Assembly (NCBI GenBank): GCA_044224925.1
Contig: JBGAJM010000001.1
Span: 113,021 to 177,020, forward strand
DNA: 64,000 nt
Direction: 5' to 3'
Source: Candidatus Kapaibacterium sp.
GTDB lineage: Bacteria > Bacteroidota > Ignavibacteria > Kapaibacteriales > Kapaibacteriaceae
Below, piece by piece: positions 4,093-60,088 of the stretch. The translations under genes and the position numbers were made by a program. The notes under the pieces were generated by a model. That model was not told the DNA's origin. It ran no database searches and worked only from the letters and a program-made list of their open reading frames with translations. The first letter of the stretch is position 1; each line of letters begins with the position of its first letter.

Positions 4093-6369
4093 TTAATGTA
4101 CGACGTGAACCATGCTGTTGGTCGTCATGTTTCCAACTTGTACACGTAACAGGTACAAACCTGAAGGCAATTGATGCACATCAATGATGTGTTGATGTGT
4201 ACCAGCATCACGTGAGTTCTCGACAGAATTCTGCACCTCATTGCCCGTGACGTCGATCAATCGAAACGTCACACTACTGCGTTCTTGTAGCTGGTAGGTG
4301 ATCGTTGTAGATGACGCACATGGCGCAGGGCTAATGGAAAGGACGTTGCATGCCTGAACTCGTTGCGATGACTCTGGATGATCACTGTGTACTGACGTGA
4401 TCGAAGACATGCTTTGCTTCCAGATGTGCTCGCCATCAGTGAAGAGCTGTGAAGATCCATTGAGACGTGGCAAATACGCGACTGAATTCGCGCCAGGTTC
4501 TGAAACGACAGGCGATACCCGCCAAGTTCTACCATGATCCAAAGACAGAACCACCGCACCATGTGAAGTGCCAGAAGCTAATATGGTATCCCCTTCGGCG
4601 CTGATACATTCTAGAACACCGGTTAGGGGGTAGTCGATGCCGGGAGGGTGGACCGGTGTCCACGAGGCACCCATATCGGTGGACCGAAGGTATCCCGGTG
4701 TACTTGACATTGCAAGCAACTGCCATGTACCATTTGTGTCGTGAACGGCATTGATACCAGACAATCCAAGGCCATTGTAACCCGATGGTTCGGACCACTT
4801 GGTGCCATTGTTGGTAGAACGTACTACAACGCCGTTATAACAGGCGAACAAATTCGTTTCACCGGCATTGGTACGCAGGGCCACCATACCGGTCACAAAG
4901 CCTGCAAAGTCCGATCCCTTGTTTTCCAAGATCCATGTTGTGCCGTAGTCGGTGCTTCTGAAAATGACCATACCATATGCGCTAACGTAAACATCGGTGC
5001 CCCCACCGCCATCGCCCACAGTCGATATGCACTGAATGAAATTGATCGACGCTACTGGTTCCCACGTATCGCCATTTGTGCCACTGCGAAACACTTTGTC
5101 ATTGGTAGTTGCTAGGAGTATTTCTCCACCATTTGCTGTGCTGCAAACGGCGACACTTCGAAGACTCGTTGCGAAGTACGGAGCATGAAGATCGGTCCAA
5201 TGCGCTCCATCATCGTCACTACGAAACAATCCAAAGCCGTACACATGCATAAAGACACTAGGCCCGTTCACACCCTTTTGTGATGTGGCCATAAGGCGGT
5301 ATCCGATCACTTCAAAACCGCTATTCACCTTTAACCATGTTTTTCCTGCATCTGATGAGTGTAAGACCCCGCCTGCAGCATACAGGCCTGCATATATGTG
5401 CTGCTCACTCGTGGAATCCGTGCTTGCGCATATTCGAAAAATGGCCTGGCCAGAATTCACCCTTTGCACCAACTCCCAACTTGCTCCAAGGTCGGTTGAG
5501 CGGACGAGGCCGGCCCCGGTGCCTGCAATGATGCAGGTTCTTCCATCACGATCTGCTGTGATAACGATGGAAAACACCTGCAAGTCGTCAAGACCATCAT
5601 TCGACTTTGTCCACGTCACTCCATCATCATCCGACAGGTAGAATCCTGCAACATAGGTGCCCAGAACGTGCCTGAATCTGTTCGACCCCAGCTTGACCAT
5701 GGCAGATGCATTTACAGCGTTGCTTGGGATGCCAACGCATCGCGACCATGTGGCACCGCTATTCGTCGACCGAAAAGCTCCATACGTGCCAGTACATGCA
5801 TAGACAATCAATCCGCCTACGCCGTCCGGATAGCCGAACAGTTTGGTCCCGTAGAGACCACCTGAAGGTATGTCCAAATAACGCCAATGAGCGCCGTCAT
5901 CAAATGATTGAAATGCTGCGCCCGAGTCCAAACCGCAAAACAGTGTTCGCTCGAACGGTGAACGCTGAGCTACACTTACAGAGTGAACACCCATATTCAT
6001 TAACTGAATATCAACCGGACTGCTTCTACCATCACGCACAACATGATGTTCAATTCCACCTTCAGAGGCTACAAAGAGTTGAACATCACCATCAGCATCT
6101 AAAAAGGTGCATATGTCATTCCGAGTAACACTGCGGTTAGGCAGGCTGAGATCCCTCCATGACGATCCGTTATCTGAAGAACGAAATACCTTGCTATTTA
6201 TCAGAGCAAAGACAGATCCACCGGCTTCTGATATCGAGCGAACTGAGGCACCCTCTATGCTTTCGCATTTCATCCATTGTGCCCGCAAAGGTTGCACGGA
6301 CCAGAACAACGGTACAAGAAGCCAAAGAAAGAGAAGAGGTAAGTTGCGAGGTTGAGGGCAGGTGTTCAT
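4093..6369 (-). CDS. secreted BNR/Asp-box repeat (sortilin/Ycf48-like) protein with a T9SS C-terminal sorting domain
   Basis: Many S-x-D-x-G-x-T-W Asp-box motifs (SDDDGVTW, SDAGKTW, STDYGTTW, STNNGTKW, STDMGASW, SLDHGRTW). I chose the internal start at M40 (MNTCPQPRNLPLLFLWLLVPLFWSVQPLRAQ), which is followed by a signal peptide. The track ORF extends to 6486. The C-terminal about 80 aa have a Por/T9SS CTD pattern. Confidence 0.7.
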   Translation of the reverse strand: MNTCPQPRNLPLLFLWLLVPLFWSVQPLRAQWMKCESIEGASVRSISEAGGSVFALINSKVFRSSDNGSSWRDLSLPNRSVTRNDICTFLDADGDVQLFVASEGGIEHHVVRDGRSSPVDIQLMNMGVHSVSVAQRSPFERTLFCGLDSGAAFQSFDDGAHWRYLDIPSGGLYGTKLFGYPDGVGGLIVYACTGTYGAFRSTNSGATWSRCVGIPSNAVNASAMVKLGSNRFRHVLGTYVAGFYLSDDDGVTWTKSNDGLDDLQVFSIVITADRDGRTCIIAGTGAGLVRSTDLGASWELVQRVNSGQAIFRICASTDSTSEQHIYAGLYAAGGVLHSSDAGKTWLKVNSGFEVIGYRLMATSQKGVNGPSVFMHVYGFGLFRSDDDGAHWTDLHAPYFATSLRSVAVCSTANGGEILLATTNDKVFRSGTNGDTWEPVASINFIQCISTVGDGGGGTDVYVSAYGMVIFRSTDYGTTWILENKGSDFAGFVTGMVALRTNAGETNLFACYNGVVVRSTNNGTKWSEPSGYNGLGLSGINAVHDTNGTWQLLAMSSTPGYLRSTDMGASWTPVHPPGIDYPLTGVLECISAEGDTILASGTSHGAVVLSLDHGRTWRVSPVVSEPGANSVAYLPRLNGSSQLFTDGEHIWKQSMSSITSVHSDHPESSQRVQACNVLSISPAPCASSTTITYQLQERSSVTFRLIDVTGNEVQNSVENSRDAGTHQHIIDVHQLPSGLYLLRVQVGNMTTNSMVHVVH

Positions 6370-6604: not shown

Positions 6605-8164
6605 ATGATTGTACCGCGACGCAGACGAATCACCTGTTCACTTGAAGTTCTCCATATGCTGGATGTGTTTGACGAGACGAAAGACGGACCGTGGGGCCGG
6701 CCGCACGCAGCTCACCTGTTACGACGGATGATGATCGGCGCCACGCCGCTCGAGATCACTCGGGCTGTTGCCGAAGGCAGAGAGCGCACGATCGACCGAT
6801 TACTGCGACCGTGGGAAGTGCCAATGGATCACGTGGCGCAGCTCGTGGATGGCGATGTGATGGCAGAGATACAGCCGATCGACATTCCCGAGTACCGACA
6901 GTTCTTCGATACAAAGGACCGGCGCTACATCGAGACCGTGCAATGGTGGGCTGGCATCATGATCCGTGGTGAGTTCTCTGCACAGGAGCGTCTCACGCTA
7001 TGGTGGCACATGTGCATCCCTTCGTCGTTCAACGGATCGCATTTCGCAGAGAACATCATCGATCAGAACAAGACCATGCGACAGCACTGTATGGGCAATG
7101 TGCGGACGATGGTGGACGAGCTCGTGCATGGGATGGCGCTGCAGATCTATCTCAGCGGAACGGAGAATGTCTGGAAGCCGGACTACGATGGGATCAATGA
7201 GAACCTCGCGAGGGAACTTCTCGAGTTGTTCTTGCTGGGTCGGCGAGGATCGAACAACGAGCCAAACTATACGCAGTACGACATAACACAGATCGCCCGA
7301 GCGCTCAGCGGCCTCCGCATCCAGGAGTATCATCGTGTGGATGACAAGGGCATCGACTATCTCTATCGCAAGCGGCGGTTGCAATTCCGCGAAGATCATT
7401 GGGACCCGCAAGAGAAGACGATCTTCGGTCATCAAGGGGCTTTCAAGAGCACAGACGTCTTGGACATCCTCTTCACGACCAAGCAACAACAGATCGCCTA
7501 CCATATCTGTTCACGATGGTATCAGAGCTTTGTCAACGAAGTGCTTGCAGATGACGTTGTCGCAGCCATGGCAGACATTCTCCTTGCGAACGACATGAAC
7601 ATCGAACCCGTGATCCGTGCAGTCCTCAACAGTTCGCACTTCTACGAAGCATCTAATCGCATGTCCATTTCCACCCCTGCCTCCATTACCTTCCTTGGTC
7701 AGTTACGATACGCCGCCGTTGGATACATCCCGGATCTGGATGATGTGGAAGGTGGCAAGGAGGAAGACCTCTTCATTCGCCTTCGGAGTATGGGACAATG
7801 CATGTACTATCCGCCCAATGTGTCGGGATGGCCCACCGGCATGAGCACGGTATCGGGAAGTAGCATAGCGTGGCGACTGGAACAGCATCGCAGACTATGG
7901 CAAGGGAAGTTGTACTTCAAAGACTATCCGGGGGGACGTCAGGTGTATCCCATTGAAAGCGCCGACTTCAATGAAATGTACGGACGTGAGGTGTCCATTA
8001 AAGACCTTGCCGCCCTTGCAACCGTCGATCTCCTTGGCTTGAGTGAAGCAGAAGCGAAGCAAGCGGCGGAAGAGCTGTGCGCAGATCTCCCGGGAGATCA
8101 GGATGCTGCACTGCGACAGATCATGACGGCGGTAACGACTTCACCACGCATGTTGTTCTCATGA
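6605..8164 (+). CDS. DUF1800 family protein
   Basis: Contains the HLLRRMMIGATP motif typical of DUF1800 (H-L-L-R-R-x-G-F-G). It sits immediately upstream of a DUF1501 gene with an 8-bp gap, the canonical DUF1800/DUF1501 pairing. The true start may be the internal Met at about 6656. Confidence 0.8.
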   Translation: MIVPRRRRITCSLEVLHMLDVFDETKDGPWGRPHAAHLLRRMMIGATPLEITRAVAEGRERTIDRLLRPWEVPMDHVAQLVDGDVMAEIQPIDIPEYRQFFDTKDRRYIETVQWWAGIMIRGEFSAQERLTLWWHMCIPSSFNGSHFAENIIDQNKTMRQHCMGNVRTMVDELVHGMALQIYLSGTENVWKPDYDGINENLARELLELFLLGRRGSNNEPNYTQYDITQIARALSGLRIQEYHRVDDKGIDYLYRKRRLQFREDHWDPQEKTIFGHQGAFKSTDVLDILFTTKQQQIAYHICSRWYQSFVNEVLADDVVAAMADILLANDMNIEPVIRAVLNSSHFYEASNRMSISTPASITFLGQLRYAAVGYIPDLDDVEGGKEEDLFIRLRSMGQCMYYPPNVSGWPTGMSTVSGSSIAWRLEQHRRLWQGKLYFKDYPGGRQVYPIESADFNEMYGREVSIKDLAALATVDLLGLSEAEAKQAAEELCADLPGDQDAALRQIMTAVTTSPRMLFS

Positions 8165-15348: not shown

Positions 15349-15392
15349 ATCCTTGTCAAAAAACAAGACTGCAAAGATACGAACATTGACCC

Positions 15393-29930: not shown

Positions 29931-29958
29931 ATCGAGGGATTACAAATATAGGGAAATC

Positions 29959-45482: not shown

Positions 45483-45731
45483 ATGGCAGCAGCAAAGAAG
45501 GCAGCAGCCAAGAAACCGGCAGCCAAGAAGCCGGCAAAGAAGGCAGCCAAGAAGGCAGCCAAGAAGACAGCGGCTAAGAAGCCAGCTGTAAAGAAGGCCG
45601 CGGCTAAGAAGCCAGCAGCGAAGAAGGCAGCCAAGAAGGCCGCCAAGAAGCCTGCAGCGAAGAAGGCAGCCAAGAAGGCCGCCAAGAAGCCGGCCAAGAA
45701 GGCCGCTGCAAAAAAAAAAGCAGCCAAGTAA
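45483..45731 (+). CDS. histone H1-like lysine/alanine-repeat basic protein; likely the N-terminal part of a longer gene (see A10 frameshift finding)
   Basis: 82 aa, composed entirely of (A)AKK(P)AAKK repeats. It ends 3 codons after an A10 homopolymer. Confidence 0.55.
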   Translation: MAAAKKAAAKKPAAKKPAKKAAKKAAKKTAAKKPAVKKAAAKKPAAKKAAKKAAKKPAAKKAAKKAAKKPAKKAAAKKKAAK

Positions 45732-48395: not shown

Positions 48396-49085
48396 TTACT
48401 TTGGCAGCGGCATTCCTCGCATCCGTCCCGCAATGAACGAAGCGCGCTTGCGCGTATAGGCCGAAGGTGCATCGGCATGGAACCGACGTGGATTGGGCAC
48501 CACAGCCGCTAACAATGCGGCATCGGCGTTCGTGAGTTCCGATGCGGGTTTGTGGAAATAGTATCGCGACGCAGCATCCACTCCGTACAGTCCGTCGCCC
48601 CACTCGATCATGTTCACATACACCTCAAGGATGCGCTGCTTGCCCCAGATCGCTTCGATGAGATAGACGAAGTACACTTCAAATGCCTTGCGCACCATCG
48701 ACCGCCAGGGGACGAGGAAGACGTTCTTCGATGTTTGCATCGTGATGGTGCTTGCCCCCAATGGCGGCTTGCCACGCTTGACCCGTCCCGCATTCACATG
48801 CTTGGCGCGCTCCACGGCCTTCCAGTCGATACCGTTGTGACGGAGGAACTTCCCGTCCTCTCCACTCTGCACCGCACGAAAGATGGCGGGCGAGCAACTC
48901 CCGTACGAGATCCACGAATGTGCCATCGTCATGCGATGTCCGGTGAACGGTGCCTGCACAAAACGCATGGCCATCAAGGGCGTGATGGCGGGAGGGACGA
49001 TGCGGAAAATGGCCACGACCAGCACGGATCCCACGAGGAAGGCCACGATCGTCCGCCATGTCCACACGAAAAAGTTTTTCACCAT
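48396..49085 (-). CDS. mtgA: monofunctional biosynthetic peptidoglycan transglycosylase
   Basis: GT51 motifs GEDGKFLRHNGIDW, GASTITMQTSKN and RILEVYVNMIEWG. N-terminal TM anchor. Confidence 0.85.
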   Translation of the reverse strand: MVKNFFVWTWRTIVAFLVGSVLVVAIFRIVPPAITPLMAMRFVQAPFTGHRMTMAHSWISYGSCSPAIFRAVQSGEDGKFLRHNGIDWKAVERAKHVNAGRVKRGKPPLGASTITMQTSKNVFLVPWRSMVRKAFEVYFVYLIEAIWGKQRILEVYVNMIEWGDGLYGVDAASRYYFHKPASELTNADAALLAAVVPNPRRFHADAPSAYTRKRASFIAGRMRGMPLPK

Positions 49086-49161
49086 ACTTGCGCCAATCCC
49101 TTAAAGAAATTAGGTTTGCAGTGCCCAGAGGTTAAGAATCTAAAGAAACGCCGACCAAAAC

Positions 49162-49614
49162 ATGCTCAAAGACCTAGACCGACAGATCTGTGAACTCCTC
49201 CAGACGAATGCCCGGACCAGCTTGAGCGAGATCGCCGAGAGTGTGGGAACATCCATCCCCACCGTGAGCGACCATGTGCGAAAACTCGAAGAGGCGGGCT
49301 TCATCCACGGATACACGGTCGTCCTCGACGCTGCCCAATGCGGCTTCGACGTCACGGCCTTCATCTTCGTCGACATGGACTCGAGCTCTCACTACGAATC
49401 CTTCCGCAAGAGCTGCCGCCAACGCGCCGACATTCTGGAATGTCATGCCATCACCGGAACTGCCTCGCACCTGATCAAGGTACGCGTTAAAAATACAGCA
49501 GCGCTCGAGCAACTCCTATCGGCCATTCAACTTTGGAAAGGTGTCACGCGCACTCTCACCAACGTCGTCCTCAGCACCCACAAGGAATCACTCGCCCTGC
49601 CGCTTTCGTCATAA
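49162..49614 (+). CDS. Lrp/AsnC-family transcriptional regulator
   Basis: N-terminal HTH ([44 protein letters not shown]) plus a C-terminal RAM domain. 150 aa. Confidence 0.8.
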
Positions 49615-49616
49615 AC

Positions 49617-49672
49617 TCGTCACTCGTCACTCGTCACTCGTTACTCGTCACTTGTCACTCGTCACTTTTAAC
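49617..49672. repeat. heptanucleotide microsatellite (TCGTCAC) with 7 copies plus one degenerate copy, between the lrp stop and the glnN start
   Basis: tcgtcac tcgtcac tcgtcac tcgttac tcgtcac ttgtcac tcgtcac ttttaac, read directly. The glnN ATG is at 49682. Confidence 0.85.
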
Positions 49673-49681
49673 TCTCTTCCT

Positions 49682-51856
49682 ATGTCTTCCTTCCACGAAT
49701 TCGACGTGATCTCCGCAGCCCGCACGTGGCGCAATGATGCAACAGCGGATCCCTTGCCAACATCGACGCTCAAGGACGTCTTCGCCGACGATGTCCTCAC
49801 GGCCGATCAGCTTCGACAGCGGCTTTCCAAGCCCGTCTGGAAGTCGCTTCAGGCCACGATGGAGAAGGGAAGCACCATCGACCCGGCCATTGCCGATACC
49901 GTGGCCCTGGCCATGATGACGTGGGCACTTGAGAAAGGGGCCACGCACTACACGCACTGGTTCCAACCACTCACGGGCAGCACAGCAGAGAAGCACGACA
50001 GTTTCGTGATGCCGACATCCGATGGAAATGCGATCGCGCAGTTCCACGGCAAGGAGCTCATTCAGGGTGAGCCGGATGCATCGTCGTTCCCGAGCGGTGG
50101 ACTCCGTGCAACGTTCGAAGCGCGTGGGTACACGGCATGGGATCCAACGTCGCCCGCCTTCATCATGCGACACTCGAACGGCGCAACGCTTTGCATCCCG
50201 ACGGCCTTTGCATCGTGGACGGGAGAAGCGCTCGACCTGAAGACGCCATTGCTTCGCTCGCTCGAGTGCTTGAACACAAGCGCACTGCGAGCGATGAAGT
50301 TGTTCGGTCATGACGACGTGTCCAAGGTCTCGTCCACCGTTGGTGTGGAGCAAGAGTACTTTCTCATCGACGAAGAATTCTATTTCCGTCGGTCCGACCT
50401 GGTGATGAGCGGACGGACGTTGTTCGGTGCGAAGCCACCACGTGGACAGGAACTCGAGGACCATTACTTCGGCTCCATTCCGGACCGCGTGCTGAGCTTC
50501 ATGGCCGACGCAGAACATCAGCTCTACAAGCTTGGCATTCCGATCCGAACACGACATAACGAAGTGGCACCCGGTCAGTACGAAGTGGCACCGCTCTTCG
50601 AGGGCAGCAACATCGCTGCCGATCATCAGCAACTCATCATGCAGGTGCTGAAGAACACAGCACGCAAGTTCGGTCTGGTCTGCTTGCTCCACGAAAAGCC
50701 CTTTGCCGGTGTGAACGGAAGCGGCAAGCATGTGAACTGGTCGATGAGCACCGACACAGGATTGAACCTGCTGGAGCCGGGCGAGACGCCACATGAGAAC
50801 ATGATCTTCCTGTTCTTCTGCGCCGCGGTGATCCGCGCCGTCGATACCCATCAAGACCTTCTGCGCGCAAGCGTTGCATCGGCACCGAACGATCATCGTC
50901 TGGGTGCCAACGAAGCACCACCGGCCATCATCTCGATGTTCCTTGGCGATCAACTCACGGAGATCTACGATCGCATCGAGTCCGGCAAGGGCGGCTCCTC
51001 CAAGCGCGCCGGCTTGCTCGGCCTTGGAACACCAGTGCTGCCAACGCTTCCACGTCATGCCGGCGATCGCAACCGCACATCGCCCTTTGCCTTCACCGGC
51101 AACAAGTTCGAATTCCGCGCACCGGGTTCATCTCAGTCCGTCTCGTTCCCGATCACGGTACTCAATACCATCGTCGCCGAATCCATCGATGCGCTTTCGC
51201 GCTCCATCGAGGCACGACTCAAGAAGAAGCAAACCTTCGAGGTCGCTTTGCAAGAGACGCTTCGCGAAGTGTATGCATCGCACAAGCGCATCATCTTCAA
51301 TGGCGACGGATATGCGGCGAAGTGGCATCGCGAAGCAGAGAAGCGCGGACTCTTGAATCTGCCGACGACCCTTTCCGCCCTTCATCACCTTACGAGCGAC
51401 AAGAACACGAAGCTCTTCTCCGACTATGGCGTGCTGTCGCATCGCGAGATCGAAGCACGTGCAGAAGTGATGTACGACCAGTACTTCAAGACGGTGAACA
51501 TCGAAGGGGAGACCACGGAATGGGTGGCGCAAACGCAGATCCTGCCGGGTGTGCTGCAGTACTTGCAAGACCTCGCACAAACGTCCGTGGCCATGCATGG
51601 CGGTTCGCTCGCAACGACGCGCACCATCGAGCAGATCTCGCAAGGTGCGGATCAACTCTCGCATGCATTGGAACATCTGCGCTCGATGAATCTCGAGCTC
51701 GGCGGTGATACATTGCTGGAGAAGGCCCAACACATGCACGAGAACGTGTTGCCGGCCATGTTGGCTGTGCGCAAGGCCGCCGACCAATTGGAGCGCGTGA
51801 TGGCCTATAAGCACTGGCCGCTTCCGGGCTATCGCGAAATGCTATTCGTGAAGTAG
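49682..51856 (+). CDS. glnN: glutamine synthetase, type III
   Basis: 724 aa from [15 protein letters not shown]. The length and the GSIII-specific N-terminal domain plus catalytic core ([20 protein letters not shown]) fit type III GS. The track ORF start at 49541 runs through the heptamer repeat and is rejected. Confidence 0.85.
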
Positions 51857-57767: not shown

Positions 57768-60088
57768 TCAGCTTGACGTTTTCTTTGCGGCCTTCTTCGC
57801 TGCGGGTTTCTTCGCGGCAGTTTTCTTTGCGGCCTTCTTCGCTGCCGGCTTCTTCGCGGCGGTCTTCTTTGCAGCAGCTTTCTTGGCGGCAGCGGGTGAC
57901 ACCTTTGGTGCCTGTTGCGCTGCAAGGGCAAGACAGTCTTCCAACGTCAGCGACGTTGGTTCAGTGCCCTTCGGAATGCGCACGTTCTGCTTGCCAACGA
58001 CCACAAAGGCTCCCCATCTGCCTTTCAGCACCTTCACGGATGGATCTTCAGGGAAGGTCTTGATCGTGCGGTCGATGATGGACTGTCGCTTCAATTGGAT
58101 CAGTTCAATGCCGCGTGCTGCTTCGATGGTATGGATGTCGTCGGTCTTGGGGATCGAATAGAACGATCCTGCATGTTCGATGTAGGGACCGAACCTTCCC
58201 ACCTTCACCTCCATCACACTGCCTTCGAACTCGCCAATGGGACGTGGGAATTTGAAGAGCTCCATGGCCTGTTCGAGCGTGATGGTCGCGATCGACAGCG
58301 TGCCGGGAAGTCCCTTCTGACGTTTGTCTTCGTCGTCCTGATCGCCGATCTGCACAAGCGGACCAAAGCGTCCGAGACGCACCGATACGCGACGTCCCGA
58401 CACGGGGTCCACACCAAGCTCGCGCTCACCGCTTTGACGTTCGGCCGTGGCGCTTGTGAGTTTGAGGCGTTCTTCGAACGGACCGTAGAAGTCACGGATC
58501 ATGTCGTTCCACTTCACATGACCTTGCGCGATCTCGTCGAACTGCTTCTCGACACTGGCCGTGAAGTTGTAGTCGAGGATGCTGTCGAAATGCTTCGTCA
58601 AGAAATCGGTGACCACCATACCGATGTCGGTAGGGAAGAGCTTCGACTTCTCGGCACCCGTGTTCTCCGTTTCGACCACGCGCGAGATCTTGTCGTTCAC
58701 AAGTGTGAACATCCGCACTTGACGTGTCCATCCGTCGCGGTCCTCCTTGACCACGTACTTGCGTGCCTGGATGGTGGAGATCGTTGGCGCATACGTGGAA
58801 GGACGGCCGATGCCAAGCTCTTCGAGCTTCTTCACCAGCGATGCTTCCGTGTAGCGGGATGGCGGTCGTGCATAGCGTTCTTGCGCCTGCATCTGCACCA
58901 ATTGAAGCAATTCGCCAACGCTCAGCGGTGGCAGCATCTTCGAACTGTCCTCGTCCTGTTCTTCATCGGTCGACTCAAGGTAGACCTTCAAGAATCCGTC
59001 GAACACCAACACTTCGCCCGTTGCCGTGAGCGTATCGGGCAGTGTGCTCACACTGATCGTTGCGATCGTGCGCTCAAGCTTCGCATCGGACATCTGTGAT
59101 GCCAACGAACGCTTGTAGATCAAGTCGTAGAGCCGCTTCTCGGGGTCGCCCCCGGGCACGGTCCGCTTCGACAGATCCGTTGGTCGAATGGCCTCGTGTG
59201 CTTCTTGTGCACTGGCAACCTTCGTGGTGTAGTTGCGCGGATTCGAATAGCCATCGCCGTACGTTGTGAGGATCTCTGTGCGTGCGGCATCGATAGCGAA
59301 CTCCGAAAGGTTCACAGAGTCGGTACGCATGTACGTGATATGTCCGCCCTCATACAGATCCTGCGCCAGCTTCATCGTTCGTGCCAGCGAATAGCCCAGC
59401 TTCCTGCTGGCCTCTTGTTGCAGGGTAGAGGTCGTGAAGGGCGGCGAGGGACTCTTCTTGGCGGGCTTGACCTCGAGGGCCGTGATGGCAAAGGATGCAC
59501 CCTTGCAGCGCTCGAGGAAGTCGCGTGCTTCTTCTTCGGTGTCGAACCGACGTGGCAGTTCGGCCACGAGCGACTTGCCGTTCACATCGAAGGTCGCCGT
59601 GACCTTGAACTGACTCGTCGACGTGAAGTTCTGAATGTCGCGCTCACGCTCGACCACGAGACGCACGGCCACGCTCTGCACACGTCCGGCCGAAAGGTTC
59701 TTCTGCACCTTGCGCCACAACACGGGCGAGAGACCATAGCCGACGAGACGGTCCAGCACACGACGTGCCTGCTGCGCATCGACCAAGTGCTGGTCGATCT
59801 GCCGCGGGTGGTCGATAGCGTTGAGAATGGCCTTCTTCGTGATCTCGTGAAACACGATCCGACGTGTCTTCTCGGCCGGAAGGTCGAGAGCCTCTGCGAG
59901 GTGCCAGGCGATCTGTCTTCAGAAACCTCGTAGACCGGTTCGAAATTGCCCTTGGTGTCGATCGCCTGATCGTTCCCCGGCAGGTCTCGAATGTGGCCCA
60001 TGCAGGAAGTGACCACGTATTGGTCGTCCAGGAACTTCTGGATGGTCTTGGCCTTCGAGGGTGACTCTACGATCACGAGATTCTTCAT
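57768..60088 (-). pseudogene. topA: DNA topoisomerase I, disrupted (frame change with about 27-33 codons missing, including the Toprim DxDxE motif); lysine/alanine-rich C-terminal tail
   Basis: Frame A from ATG 60088 gives [37 protein letters not shown]...[10 protein letters not shown] (58 aa), then non-homologous sequence. Frame B opens after a TGA at 59919-59921 and reads [31 protein letters not shown]..., continuing as TopA to 57768. The conserved ...K.VV..L....K.AD.VYLATDxDREGEA... segment between them is absent. The C-terminus is AAKKAAAKKTAAKKPAAKK... Confidence 0.6.

Follow-up and report, generated by a model that had tools for sequence, protein, structure and literature searches.

A tandem array of seven-nucleotide units fills most of the short gap between two co-oriented genes, one for a transcriptional regulator (lrp) and the other for a type III glutamine synthetase (glnN), in a 64,000-nt stretch of contig JBGAJM010000001.1 from Candidatus Kapaibacterium sp. 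(this whole stretch is hereafter the window; coordinates are positions in it and + denotes its forward strand). The lrp gene (49162 to 49614, +, with the stop codon TAA at 49612 to 49614) encodes a 150-aa protein of the Lrp/AsnC family, with Pfam matches to AsnC_trans_reg (1.2e-14), HTH_24 (7e-14) and HTH_AsnC-type (7e-11). The glnN gene (49682 to 51856, +) encodes a protein of 724 aa matching GSIII_N (5.6e-75), Gln-synt_C-ter (4e-37) and Gln-synt_C (1e-19), and Pfam thus confirmed both gene identities given in an earlier note on this DNA. The 67-nt spacer between them (49615 to 49681, +) is pyrimidine-rich (25 C, 25 T, 10 A and 7 G) and its RNA is predicted to be unstructured.

The array proper (49617 to 49665, +) is an interrupted simple-sequence repeat (SSR) of seven TCGTCAC-type heptamers, five of them perfect (starting at 49617, 49624, 49631, 49645 and 49659) and two with a single-base change (TCGTTAC at 49638 and TTGTCAC at 49652). 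A degenerate eighth unit, TTTTAAC (49666 to 49672, +), stops 9 nt short of the ATG of glnN at 49682, and the pyrimidine tract TCTCTTCCT (49673 to 49681, +) lies directly 5' of this start codon, without a Shine-Dalgarno sequence. Read from 49612 to 49684, the full order is hence TAA, AC, three TCGTCAC, TCGTTAC, TCGTCAC, TTGTCAC, TCGTCAC, TTTTAAC, TCTCTTCCT and ATG. The description in the earlier note (seven heptamers, two of them single-base variants, and a degenerate copy, filling the gap to within 9 nt of glnN) proved exact both by reading the sequence and by Tandem Repeats Finder (TRF), which reported period 7, 7.4 copies, 91% matches and a score of 90.

The window has six double heptamers with at most two mismatches, all of them within the array; chance would give 1.55, and six was not attained in any of 100 shuffles. 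TRF and the shuffles together place the array, as short units repeated head to tail, beyond chance. The single heptamer occurs 19 times in the window, compared to 19.8 expected, and is not enriched elsewhere; the other TCGTCAC arrays for which the earlier note had proposed a search are absent from the 64 kb, with TRF detecting no second period-7 array of three or more copies.

A 771-aa open reading frame (ORF) that starts at a GTG at 49541 and reads through the array was considered as an extended glnN and rejected: it overlaps lrp, all GlnN proteins in the 90% identity cluster have 724 aa and the same start, MSSFHEF, and the spacers of relatives differ in length by amounts that are not multiples of three (45 versus 37 nt and 71 versus 37 nt).

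Alleles of the array in related genomes

Other assemblies of the lrp–glnN locus, designated by L-numbers, came from exact-protein look-ups and one genome-collection scan, and were grouped into clades by nucleotide identity over the 1.2 kb that run up to the stop codon of lrp (flank identity). In clade A, L002 and L003 (100% flank identity) carry the same seven-plus-one units and 67-nt spacer as the window, but both are Logan assemblies from adjacent run accessions, may represent the window's own population, and are therefore not fully independent confirmation. L106, L117 and L118 (94.7%; GlnN different by one residue) have five units (two TCGTCAC, two TTGTCAC and one TAATCAC) in a 45-nt spacer. 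The nearest named genome, the metagenome-assembled genome (MAG) Bacteroidetes bacterium SZAS-90 (L004; 93.8% flank identity, GlnN 98% identical to that of the window), has TCGTCAC, TTGTCAC, TCGTCAC and the degenerate TTATAAC, that is, three plus one units in 37 nt. These match the window's last three units and degenerate unit, so the window has four extra units at the 5' end. L153 and L110, from one sample and assigned to clade A by their GlnN (8 aa different) and unit sequence, have at least four plus one units, both contigs stopping within the array. A different arrangement is seen in L001, the closest non-identical relative (95% nucleotide identity, 95.9% in the flank), with an Lrp identical to the window's and a 71-nt spacer in which one unit is followed by an unrelated CT-rich tract, and in L104, which shows only the first 20 nt of the spacer, likewise with one unit before a CT-rich tract, and whose Lrp differs by at least one residue. 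The near-pure CT tract of L001 (positions 2066 to 2136 of that locus; 1 G and 3 A in 71 nt) stands in place of the heptamer array and contains CTTCTCTTTTCCTTC twice with a 22-nt period, which makes it another expansion, independent of the first, at this spacer.

Clade B (~84% flank identity) comprises L111 to L116, which cover the lrp side, and L107 to L109, which cover the glnN side, of a long TTCTCAC/TTGTCAC array that is spanned by no contig: in L111 it extends over at least 242 nt (34.9 units by TRF), and in L107 it includes a 33-nt higher-order unit in three copies. In clade C (~81%; L119 and L120), five units and TTAAC make up a 45-nt spacer. Outside these clades the array is missing. 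L105 (77.9% flank identity, GlnN 88% identical) has a spacer of only 28 nt with at most vestigial TCAC motifs, L023 (GlnN 77%) has no array, and neither have L005, L006 and L007 (GlnN 65–68%), with spacers of 21 to 103 nt, the shortest in L006; the relatives at 65–68% GlnN identity that keep lrp–glnN synteny are Chlorobiota and Candidatus Kapaibacterium MAGs. None of ~80 unrelated glnN loci carries an upstream repeat, a metagenome scan with the GlnN N-terminus gave matches of at most 77% identity, with other glnN genes lacking upstream arrays, and the flanks of the related loci hold no further array. The co-oriented gene pair itself persists well outside the clades with the repeat, in every relative down to 45% Lrp identity and with as little as 58% GlnN identity (L005 to L007, L023, L042 and L045), and this wide pairing suggests a functional tie between the Lrp-type regulator and the type III enzyme.

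Unit sequence at this site varies among forms such as TCGTCAC, TTGTCAC and TTCTCAC, and some units have lost bases (TTGAC, TTTAC and TCAC). We abandoned a per-position measure of unit conservation, given that the segmentation rule itself fixes positions 1, 6 and 7 and that slippage amplifies a few founder variants, which leaves such counts uninformative on constraint. At the position of the degenerate unit, relatives show TTATAAC, TTAAC or GTAAC, and the CT-rich spacer ends of L004 (TTCCTCCT) and L001 (CCTTCCTCCT) resemble that of the window. The short 3' flank before the ATG differs among relatives, 4 to 9 nt past the common TAAC, and its constancy cannot be claimed.

Whole-unit differences at one and the same site thus give 1, 3 + 1, at least 4 + 1, 5, 7 + 1 and ~35 or more units. 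Slipped-strand mispairing is the established mechanism for the gain and loss of whole units, and the proposal in the earlier note that the array is a substrate for it is borne out by whole 7-nt-unit changes among relatives, even between loci whose 1.2-kb flanks are 99.8–100% identical; the invariant copy number named there as evidence against slippage was not observed. In clade B, relative to L111, the flank is 100.0% identical in L116 and 99.8% in L112, but the first TTCTCAC block has 9 units in L111, 16 in L116 and 7 in L112 (counts near the resolution of the assemblies, as considered below), and beyond this block the three arrays also continue differently. Where pure runs are long, as judged from these flanks, the differences are strain-level variation. 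Moreover, 12 contigs from at least seven samples, produced with differing assemblers (Logan unitigs, k141, JGI), stop within the array, which is compatible with reversible change within populations, yet array length alone could cause such breaks. By contrast with this spacer, the 76-bp gap between mtgA and lrp, at a distance of 450 nt, shows hardly any change in clades A to C, including the box TAGGTTTG described below, and by this comparison hypervariability is confined to the lrp–glnN spacer.

Since copy number varies among relatives in whole units, the element is, as far as comparison of alleles can establish, a slippage-driven heptanucleotide SSR with the unit T-Y-S-T-C-A-C. It is kept at one site across lineages with 81–84% flank identity, and the distribution of alleles is that of a repeat that originated in the ancestor shared by a small clade and then grew, shrank and was remodelled in 7-nt steps, leaving spacers of 37 to more than 250 nt.

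Probable transcription of the spacer and predicted properties of the leader RNA

TAnnTTTG is the −7 element of Bacteroidetes promoters, as in Bacteroides and Flavobacterium. The window has eight matches to it, four of them intergenic (0.93 expected) and five at promoter-like positions. The five include TATCTTTG (15372 to 15379, −) and TATATTTG (29943 to 29950, −), 24 and 13 nt upstream of tRNA-Lys and tRNA-Leu, respectively, which indicates that the organism uses promoters of this type. Another of them, the candidate −7 element TAGGTTTG (49111 to 49118, +), lies 43 nt upstream of the lrp ATG and is kept as TAGGTTTG or TAAGTTTG in relatives down to 77% flank identity (to L023). It is bracketed by an exact direct repeat, TAAAGAAA (49102 to 49109 and 49141 to 49148, 39 nt apart), which is largely kept in clades A to C and through which the Lrp-like protein might regulate its own gene. 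TAnnTTTG is absent from the lrp–glnN spacer, a scan of 48900 to 50100 gave no sigma-70-like promoter and no terminator on the + strand, and inspection by eye revealed no NtcA, sigma-54 or CRP-like motifs. In addition, the spacers of L006 and L105, at 21 and 28 nt, are too short to hold a promoter. From the conserved TAnnTTTG element of lrp, its absence from the spacer, the lack of a + strand terminator and the kept synteny, we infer that lrp and glnN are transcribed together as a single unit, likely from the promoter upstream of lrp, with the repeat in the mRNA between the two cistrons. Neither gene is preceded by a Shine-Dalgarno sequence, and for this organism of the Bacteroidota/Chlorobiota group we treat translation initiation as Shine-Dalgarno-independent.

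The earlier note had further proposed that a change in copy number would alter promoter or ribosome-binding-site spacing for glutamine synthetase. This finds no support, for there is no sigma-70-like or Bacteroidetes-type element in or near the array and no Shine-Dalgarno sequence; the main quantity set by repeat number is the length of the untranslated leader or intercistronic spacer. In folding predictions, the spacer RNA has a minimum free energy of −7.4 kcal/mol, compared to −12.35 ± 2.7 kcal/mol in shuffles (z = +1.83), 195 of 200 shuffles fold at least as well, and its centroid is fully unpaired. Rfam gave no match in the region at E ≤ 1 and, at gathering score, only two tRNAs in the whole window; with neither an Rfam match nor a paired centroid, the spacer does not resemble a known structured leader such as a glutamine riboswitch.

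Among 70-nt windows, the spacer belongs to the highest-ranking 0.1% for pyrimidine content and likewise for scarcity of G, and to the highest 0.4% when C minus G is taken. C to G stands at 25:7 for the window, 92:10 for L111 and 26:1 for L001, where the repeat has been replaced but a purine-poor tract of like length (71 versus 67 nt) is still present. In composition, and in composition only, the spacer corresponds to a rut site, namely a stretch of untranslated RNA, ~70 nt or longer, that is unstructured, rich in C and poor in G. The repeat is thus probably transcribed as an unstructured, pyrimidine-rich and G-poor leader of variable length.

Proposed effect on glnN and competing explanations

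The best explanation overall, to which we assign a probability of ~0.55, is that a slippage-prone heptamer repeat in the untranslated lrp–glnN spacer is co-transcribed and tunes glnN by its number of units. The lrp–glnN transcript from the promoter upstream of lrp would carry the repeat as a C/U-rich unstructured leader, slippage would change the unit number and with it the length of the leader or intercistronic spacer, and leader length would, by analogy, tune glnN output quantitatively, as a rheostat with no on/off frameshift. Two routes, both grounded in established biology, can be envisaged. A longer untranslated C-rich, G-poor RNA might improve Rho loading and, by polarity, lower glnN transcription relative to lrp; or the pyrimidine-rich single-stranded leader might recruit ribosomal protein S1, so that initiation could rise without Shine-Dalgarno pairing. 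In Haemophilus influenzae hmw1A, a 5'-ATCTTTC heptamer repeat lies within the 5'-untranslated part of the transcript (5' UTR) and more repeats mean less expression (PMC8262952), and on this analogy we favour a negative, graded effect of added units on glnN. Copy number may, in the same manner, tune production of a central nitrogen enzyme. We are far more reserved about the further step to a true contingency locus for central nitrogen metabolism in a free-living environmental bacterium, which is unlikely: leader-length subpopulations made by slippage would then differ in how much glutamine synthetase III they have, whether by Rho-dependent polarity or by S1-dependent initiation on a repeat RNA rich in C and U, and so hedge against fluctuating nitrogen.

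Several points weigh against the best explanation. The short interrupted alleles are unchanged across samples (the window with L002 and L003, L106 with L118, and L119 with L120), and the window allele may be effectively stable. Slippage depends on the length of the uninterrupted run, which fits short alleles that are stable and long pure runs that vary; with its longest pure run below four units, the window allele is probably only moderately mutable, much less so than sister-clade arrays with long pure runs. In short-read assemblies, the unit counts of such long runs, notably the 16 of L116 at k = 141, are near the assembler's resolution limit. The direction of the effect is ambiguous too, as Rho polarity would give less glnN with more units and S1 recruitment more. 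Lastly, lrp contains, in its 3' end, a near-match to the promoter element (CAACTTTG, ~49527) that could act as an internal promoter; even then, the leader of its transcript would include the repeat.

Among the alternatives, the one that survives best, and which we hold to be possible but on balance doubtful, is that the array is a neutral hypermutable microsatellite in a gap constrained only to little G and little structure, its copy number drifting without consequence for glnN. Relatives manage with repeat-free spacers of 21–28 nt, one lineage has swapped the repeat for an unrelated CT-rich duplication, searches gave neither a conserved motif or structure nor a known RNA family, and the array is unique in the window rather than part of a genome-wide signal, all of which neutrality would accommodate. 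It accounts less readily for persistence of the array at a single site despite 16–19% flank divergence, which is unexpected given that bacterial genomes tend to lose long repeats, or for the low-purine composition and length retained after replacement in L001; and arrays of more than 240 nt ahead of a central metabolic gene are unlikely to be without effect on the leader RNA.

Binding of a protein to the 7-nt units, with unit number setting occupancy, seems improbable to us, whether the ligand be the adjacent Lrp on DNA, as the earlier note had suggested, or an S1, cold-shock or HutP-/TRAP-like protein on RNA. Period-7 triplet arrays bound by HutP are known and speak for it, as does the regulator gene that adjoins glnN in synteny over a wide range. 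Lrp proteins also adjoin and regulate glnA in haloarchaea (PMC8229911), and S1, Csp and CsrA have been proposed as binders of TAACTGA heptamer arrays before start codons (PMC4679880). Yet the Lrp of L001 and L104 is identical or nearly so to that of the window and faces a single unit, distant lrp–glnN pairs lack the array, and unit sequence drifts freely, with units losing bases. Lrp/AsnC proteins prefer imperfect palindromic, AT-rich sites. The array has no dyad symmetry and no AT-rich core, in contrast to operators of this family (imperfect palindromes of ~13–15 bp, AT-rich and co-occurring with the regulator). A genome with an identical Lrp has only one unit, which makes an Lrp operator unlikely.

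Still less probable, indeed very much so, is phase variation by promoter spacing, in which glnN would have a promoter of its own, with the repeat between or upstream of the promoter elements, and this promoter would be turned on or off as units come and go. TTGTCA and TCGTCA do resemble a −35 hexamer, TATAAC, TTTAAC or TTAAC at the 3' end resembles a −10 element placed for a leaderless transcript, and some unit always stands at 16-nt spacing. But the sigma-70 scan was empty, the organism's apparent TAnnTTTG type is absent from the spacer, and periodic units keep the spacing to the 3' element the same at any copy number, so that a change in that number would not work as a promoter switch. That assembly errors produced the array or its variation we consider hardly credible, despite the frequent contig breaks in the array and the uncertain counts in pure runs near k-mer size (L116), as the window allele recurs base for base in two other assemblies (possibly of the same population), alleles of up to 56 nt are interrupted and bounded by unique sequence, and related arrays occur in NCBI, JGI, ENA and Logan assemblies made with differing software.

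Heptamer arrays elsewhere and possible significance for nitrogen assimilation

The earlier note did not recognise the array as a known cis-element. This needs qualifying, because heptamer arrays before genes are a described class (PMC4679880; PMC8262952). A full-text literature search returned no report tying glnN to tandem repeats and, likewise, nothing usable on cyanobacterial short tandemly repeated repetitive (STRR) heptamers. The closest experimentally studied parallel to the proposed tuning of glnN by unit number is H. influenzae hmw1A/hmw2A, where a strain-variable, pyrimidine-rich 7-nt tandem unit also precedes the start codon, there downstream of the active promoter, in 13–24 copies among the constructs and isolates covered and with a graded rather than an on/off effect (PMC8262952). 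That effect was shown experimentally, for a surface adhesin of a host-adapted pathogen, whereas the present array belongs to a nitrogen-assimilation gene of an uncultured environmental bacterium, occupies an intercistronic spacer after a stop codon, and ranges from 1 to more than 35 units. The 5'-UTR AGAT repeat of Moraxella catarrhalis uspA2, in the account given in PMC4679880, is similarly strain-variable (6–23 copies) and modulates expression, but has a tetranucleotide unit, serves a pathogen surface protein, and has an optimum copy number shown by mutagenesis.

In Bacteroidetes and Cyanobacteria, TAACTGA-type and other heptamer arrays reach 43 copies (PMC4679880). The TAACTGA type (MacGregor, 2015; Beggiatoaceae, Cyanobacteria and some Bacteroidetes) is like the glnN locus in its 7-nt indels between strains, repeat-free shorter gaps in relatives and contigs ending in arrays (PMC4679880), and the window array likewise stands in forward orientation directly before a start codon without a Shine-Dalgarno sequence and without RNA structure. 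It differs in forming genome-wide families of one heptamer (169 sets in one genome), compared to another unit and a single array in 64 kb here, and by these features the glnN array is not a member of such a family. According to Mrázek et al. (2007), as cited in PMC4679880, and to PMC4692102, heptamers are the most abundant unit of long SSRs in most SSR-rich prokaryotic genomes surveyed, for which polymerase slippage has been proposed, possibly since ~7 nt contact the polymerase. As presented in PMC4679880, long SSRs with 5–11-nt units are a statistical class with no function assigned, in contrast to the natural allelic series at one gene described here. As for the gene pair, Lrp activates glnA in Halobacterium salinarum, and in haloarchaea an Lrp-family gene likewise adjoins a glutamine synthetase gene (PMC8229911). 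There the two genes have opposite orientation and separate promoters, the enzyme is of type I and no repeat is present; here they are co-oriented, with the repeat alone between them.

Some further repeats came to light. IMG/VR viral contigs with (TCGTCAC)x3 or (TTCTCAC)x4 (L122, L124, L126, L130, L141, L147 and L150) each contain many heptamer arrays of ~3–11 copies with different 7-mers, examples being L126 at 4465 to 4504 and 6782 to 6847, and L150 with twelve arrays. Many of these apparently lie in short gaps, a few to ~30 nt upstream of ORF starts, while a crude ORF call puts a good share inside ORFs. In some phage genomes, then, period-7 arrays before genes seem to occur whatever the sequence of the unit; they offer no functional clue for the glnN locus. 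In L078 (Ga0070681_10018952; 4668 to 4803 and 4917 to 5063), two AGTCGTC/AGTCTTC arrays in inverted orientation, with a unit one base from the window's ACTCGTC, are situated a short way downstream of a glnN that is unrelated (59% identical). L024 (JAABUS010000933.1; 932 to 1016) has a 12-copy GGTCGCC array with 97% matches, 1.5 kb upstream of an unrelated glnN; across ~450 kb of unrelated loci, period-7 arrays like this one are very few. Within the window, two imperfect tandem repeats of the GCAGCCAAGAAG type and its complement, with periods of 12–42 nt (45485 to 45711, +, and 57778 to 57890), would correspond to Lys/Ala-rich low-complexity stretches if within genes.

The chief interest of the locus is that copy number has so extreme a range in an environmental bacterium and at a gene of core metabolism. 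Functions of prokaryotic heptamer arrays are known for little more than a few adhesin genes of pathogens, and here a natural allelic series with 0, 1, 3, 5, 7, 16 and more than 35 units exists at one site, ahead of the gene for an enzyme whose expression and activity are easy to measure and in a lineage without Shine-Dalgarno-based initiation. A practical warning is that the array systematically breaks metagenome assemblies. Should unit number have no effect on glnN, the locus would be a clean case of how fast a neutral bacterial microsatellite evolves. If, instead, glnN output does change with unit number, an environmental bacterium would have its core nitrogen assimilation under stochastic, heritable tuning; and were the locus a true contingency locus, phase or rheostat variation by SSRs would extend from pathogen surface antigens to core metabolism, and long heptamer SSRs would gain a defined function.

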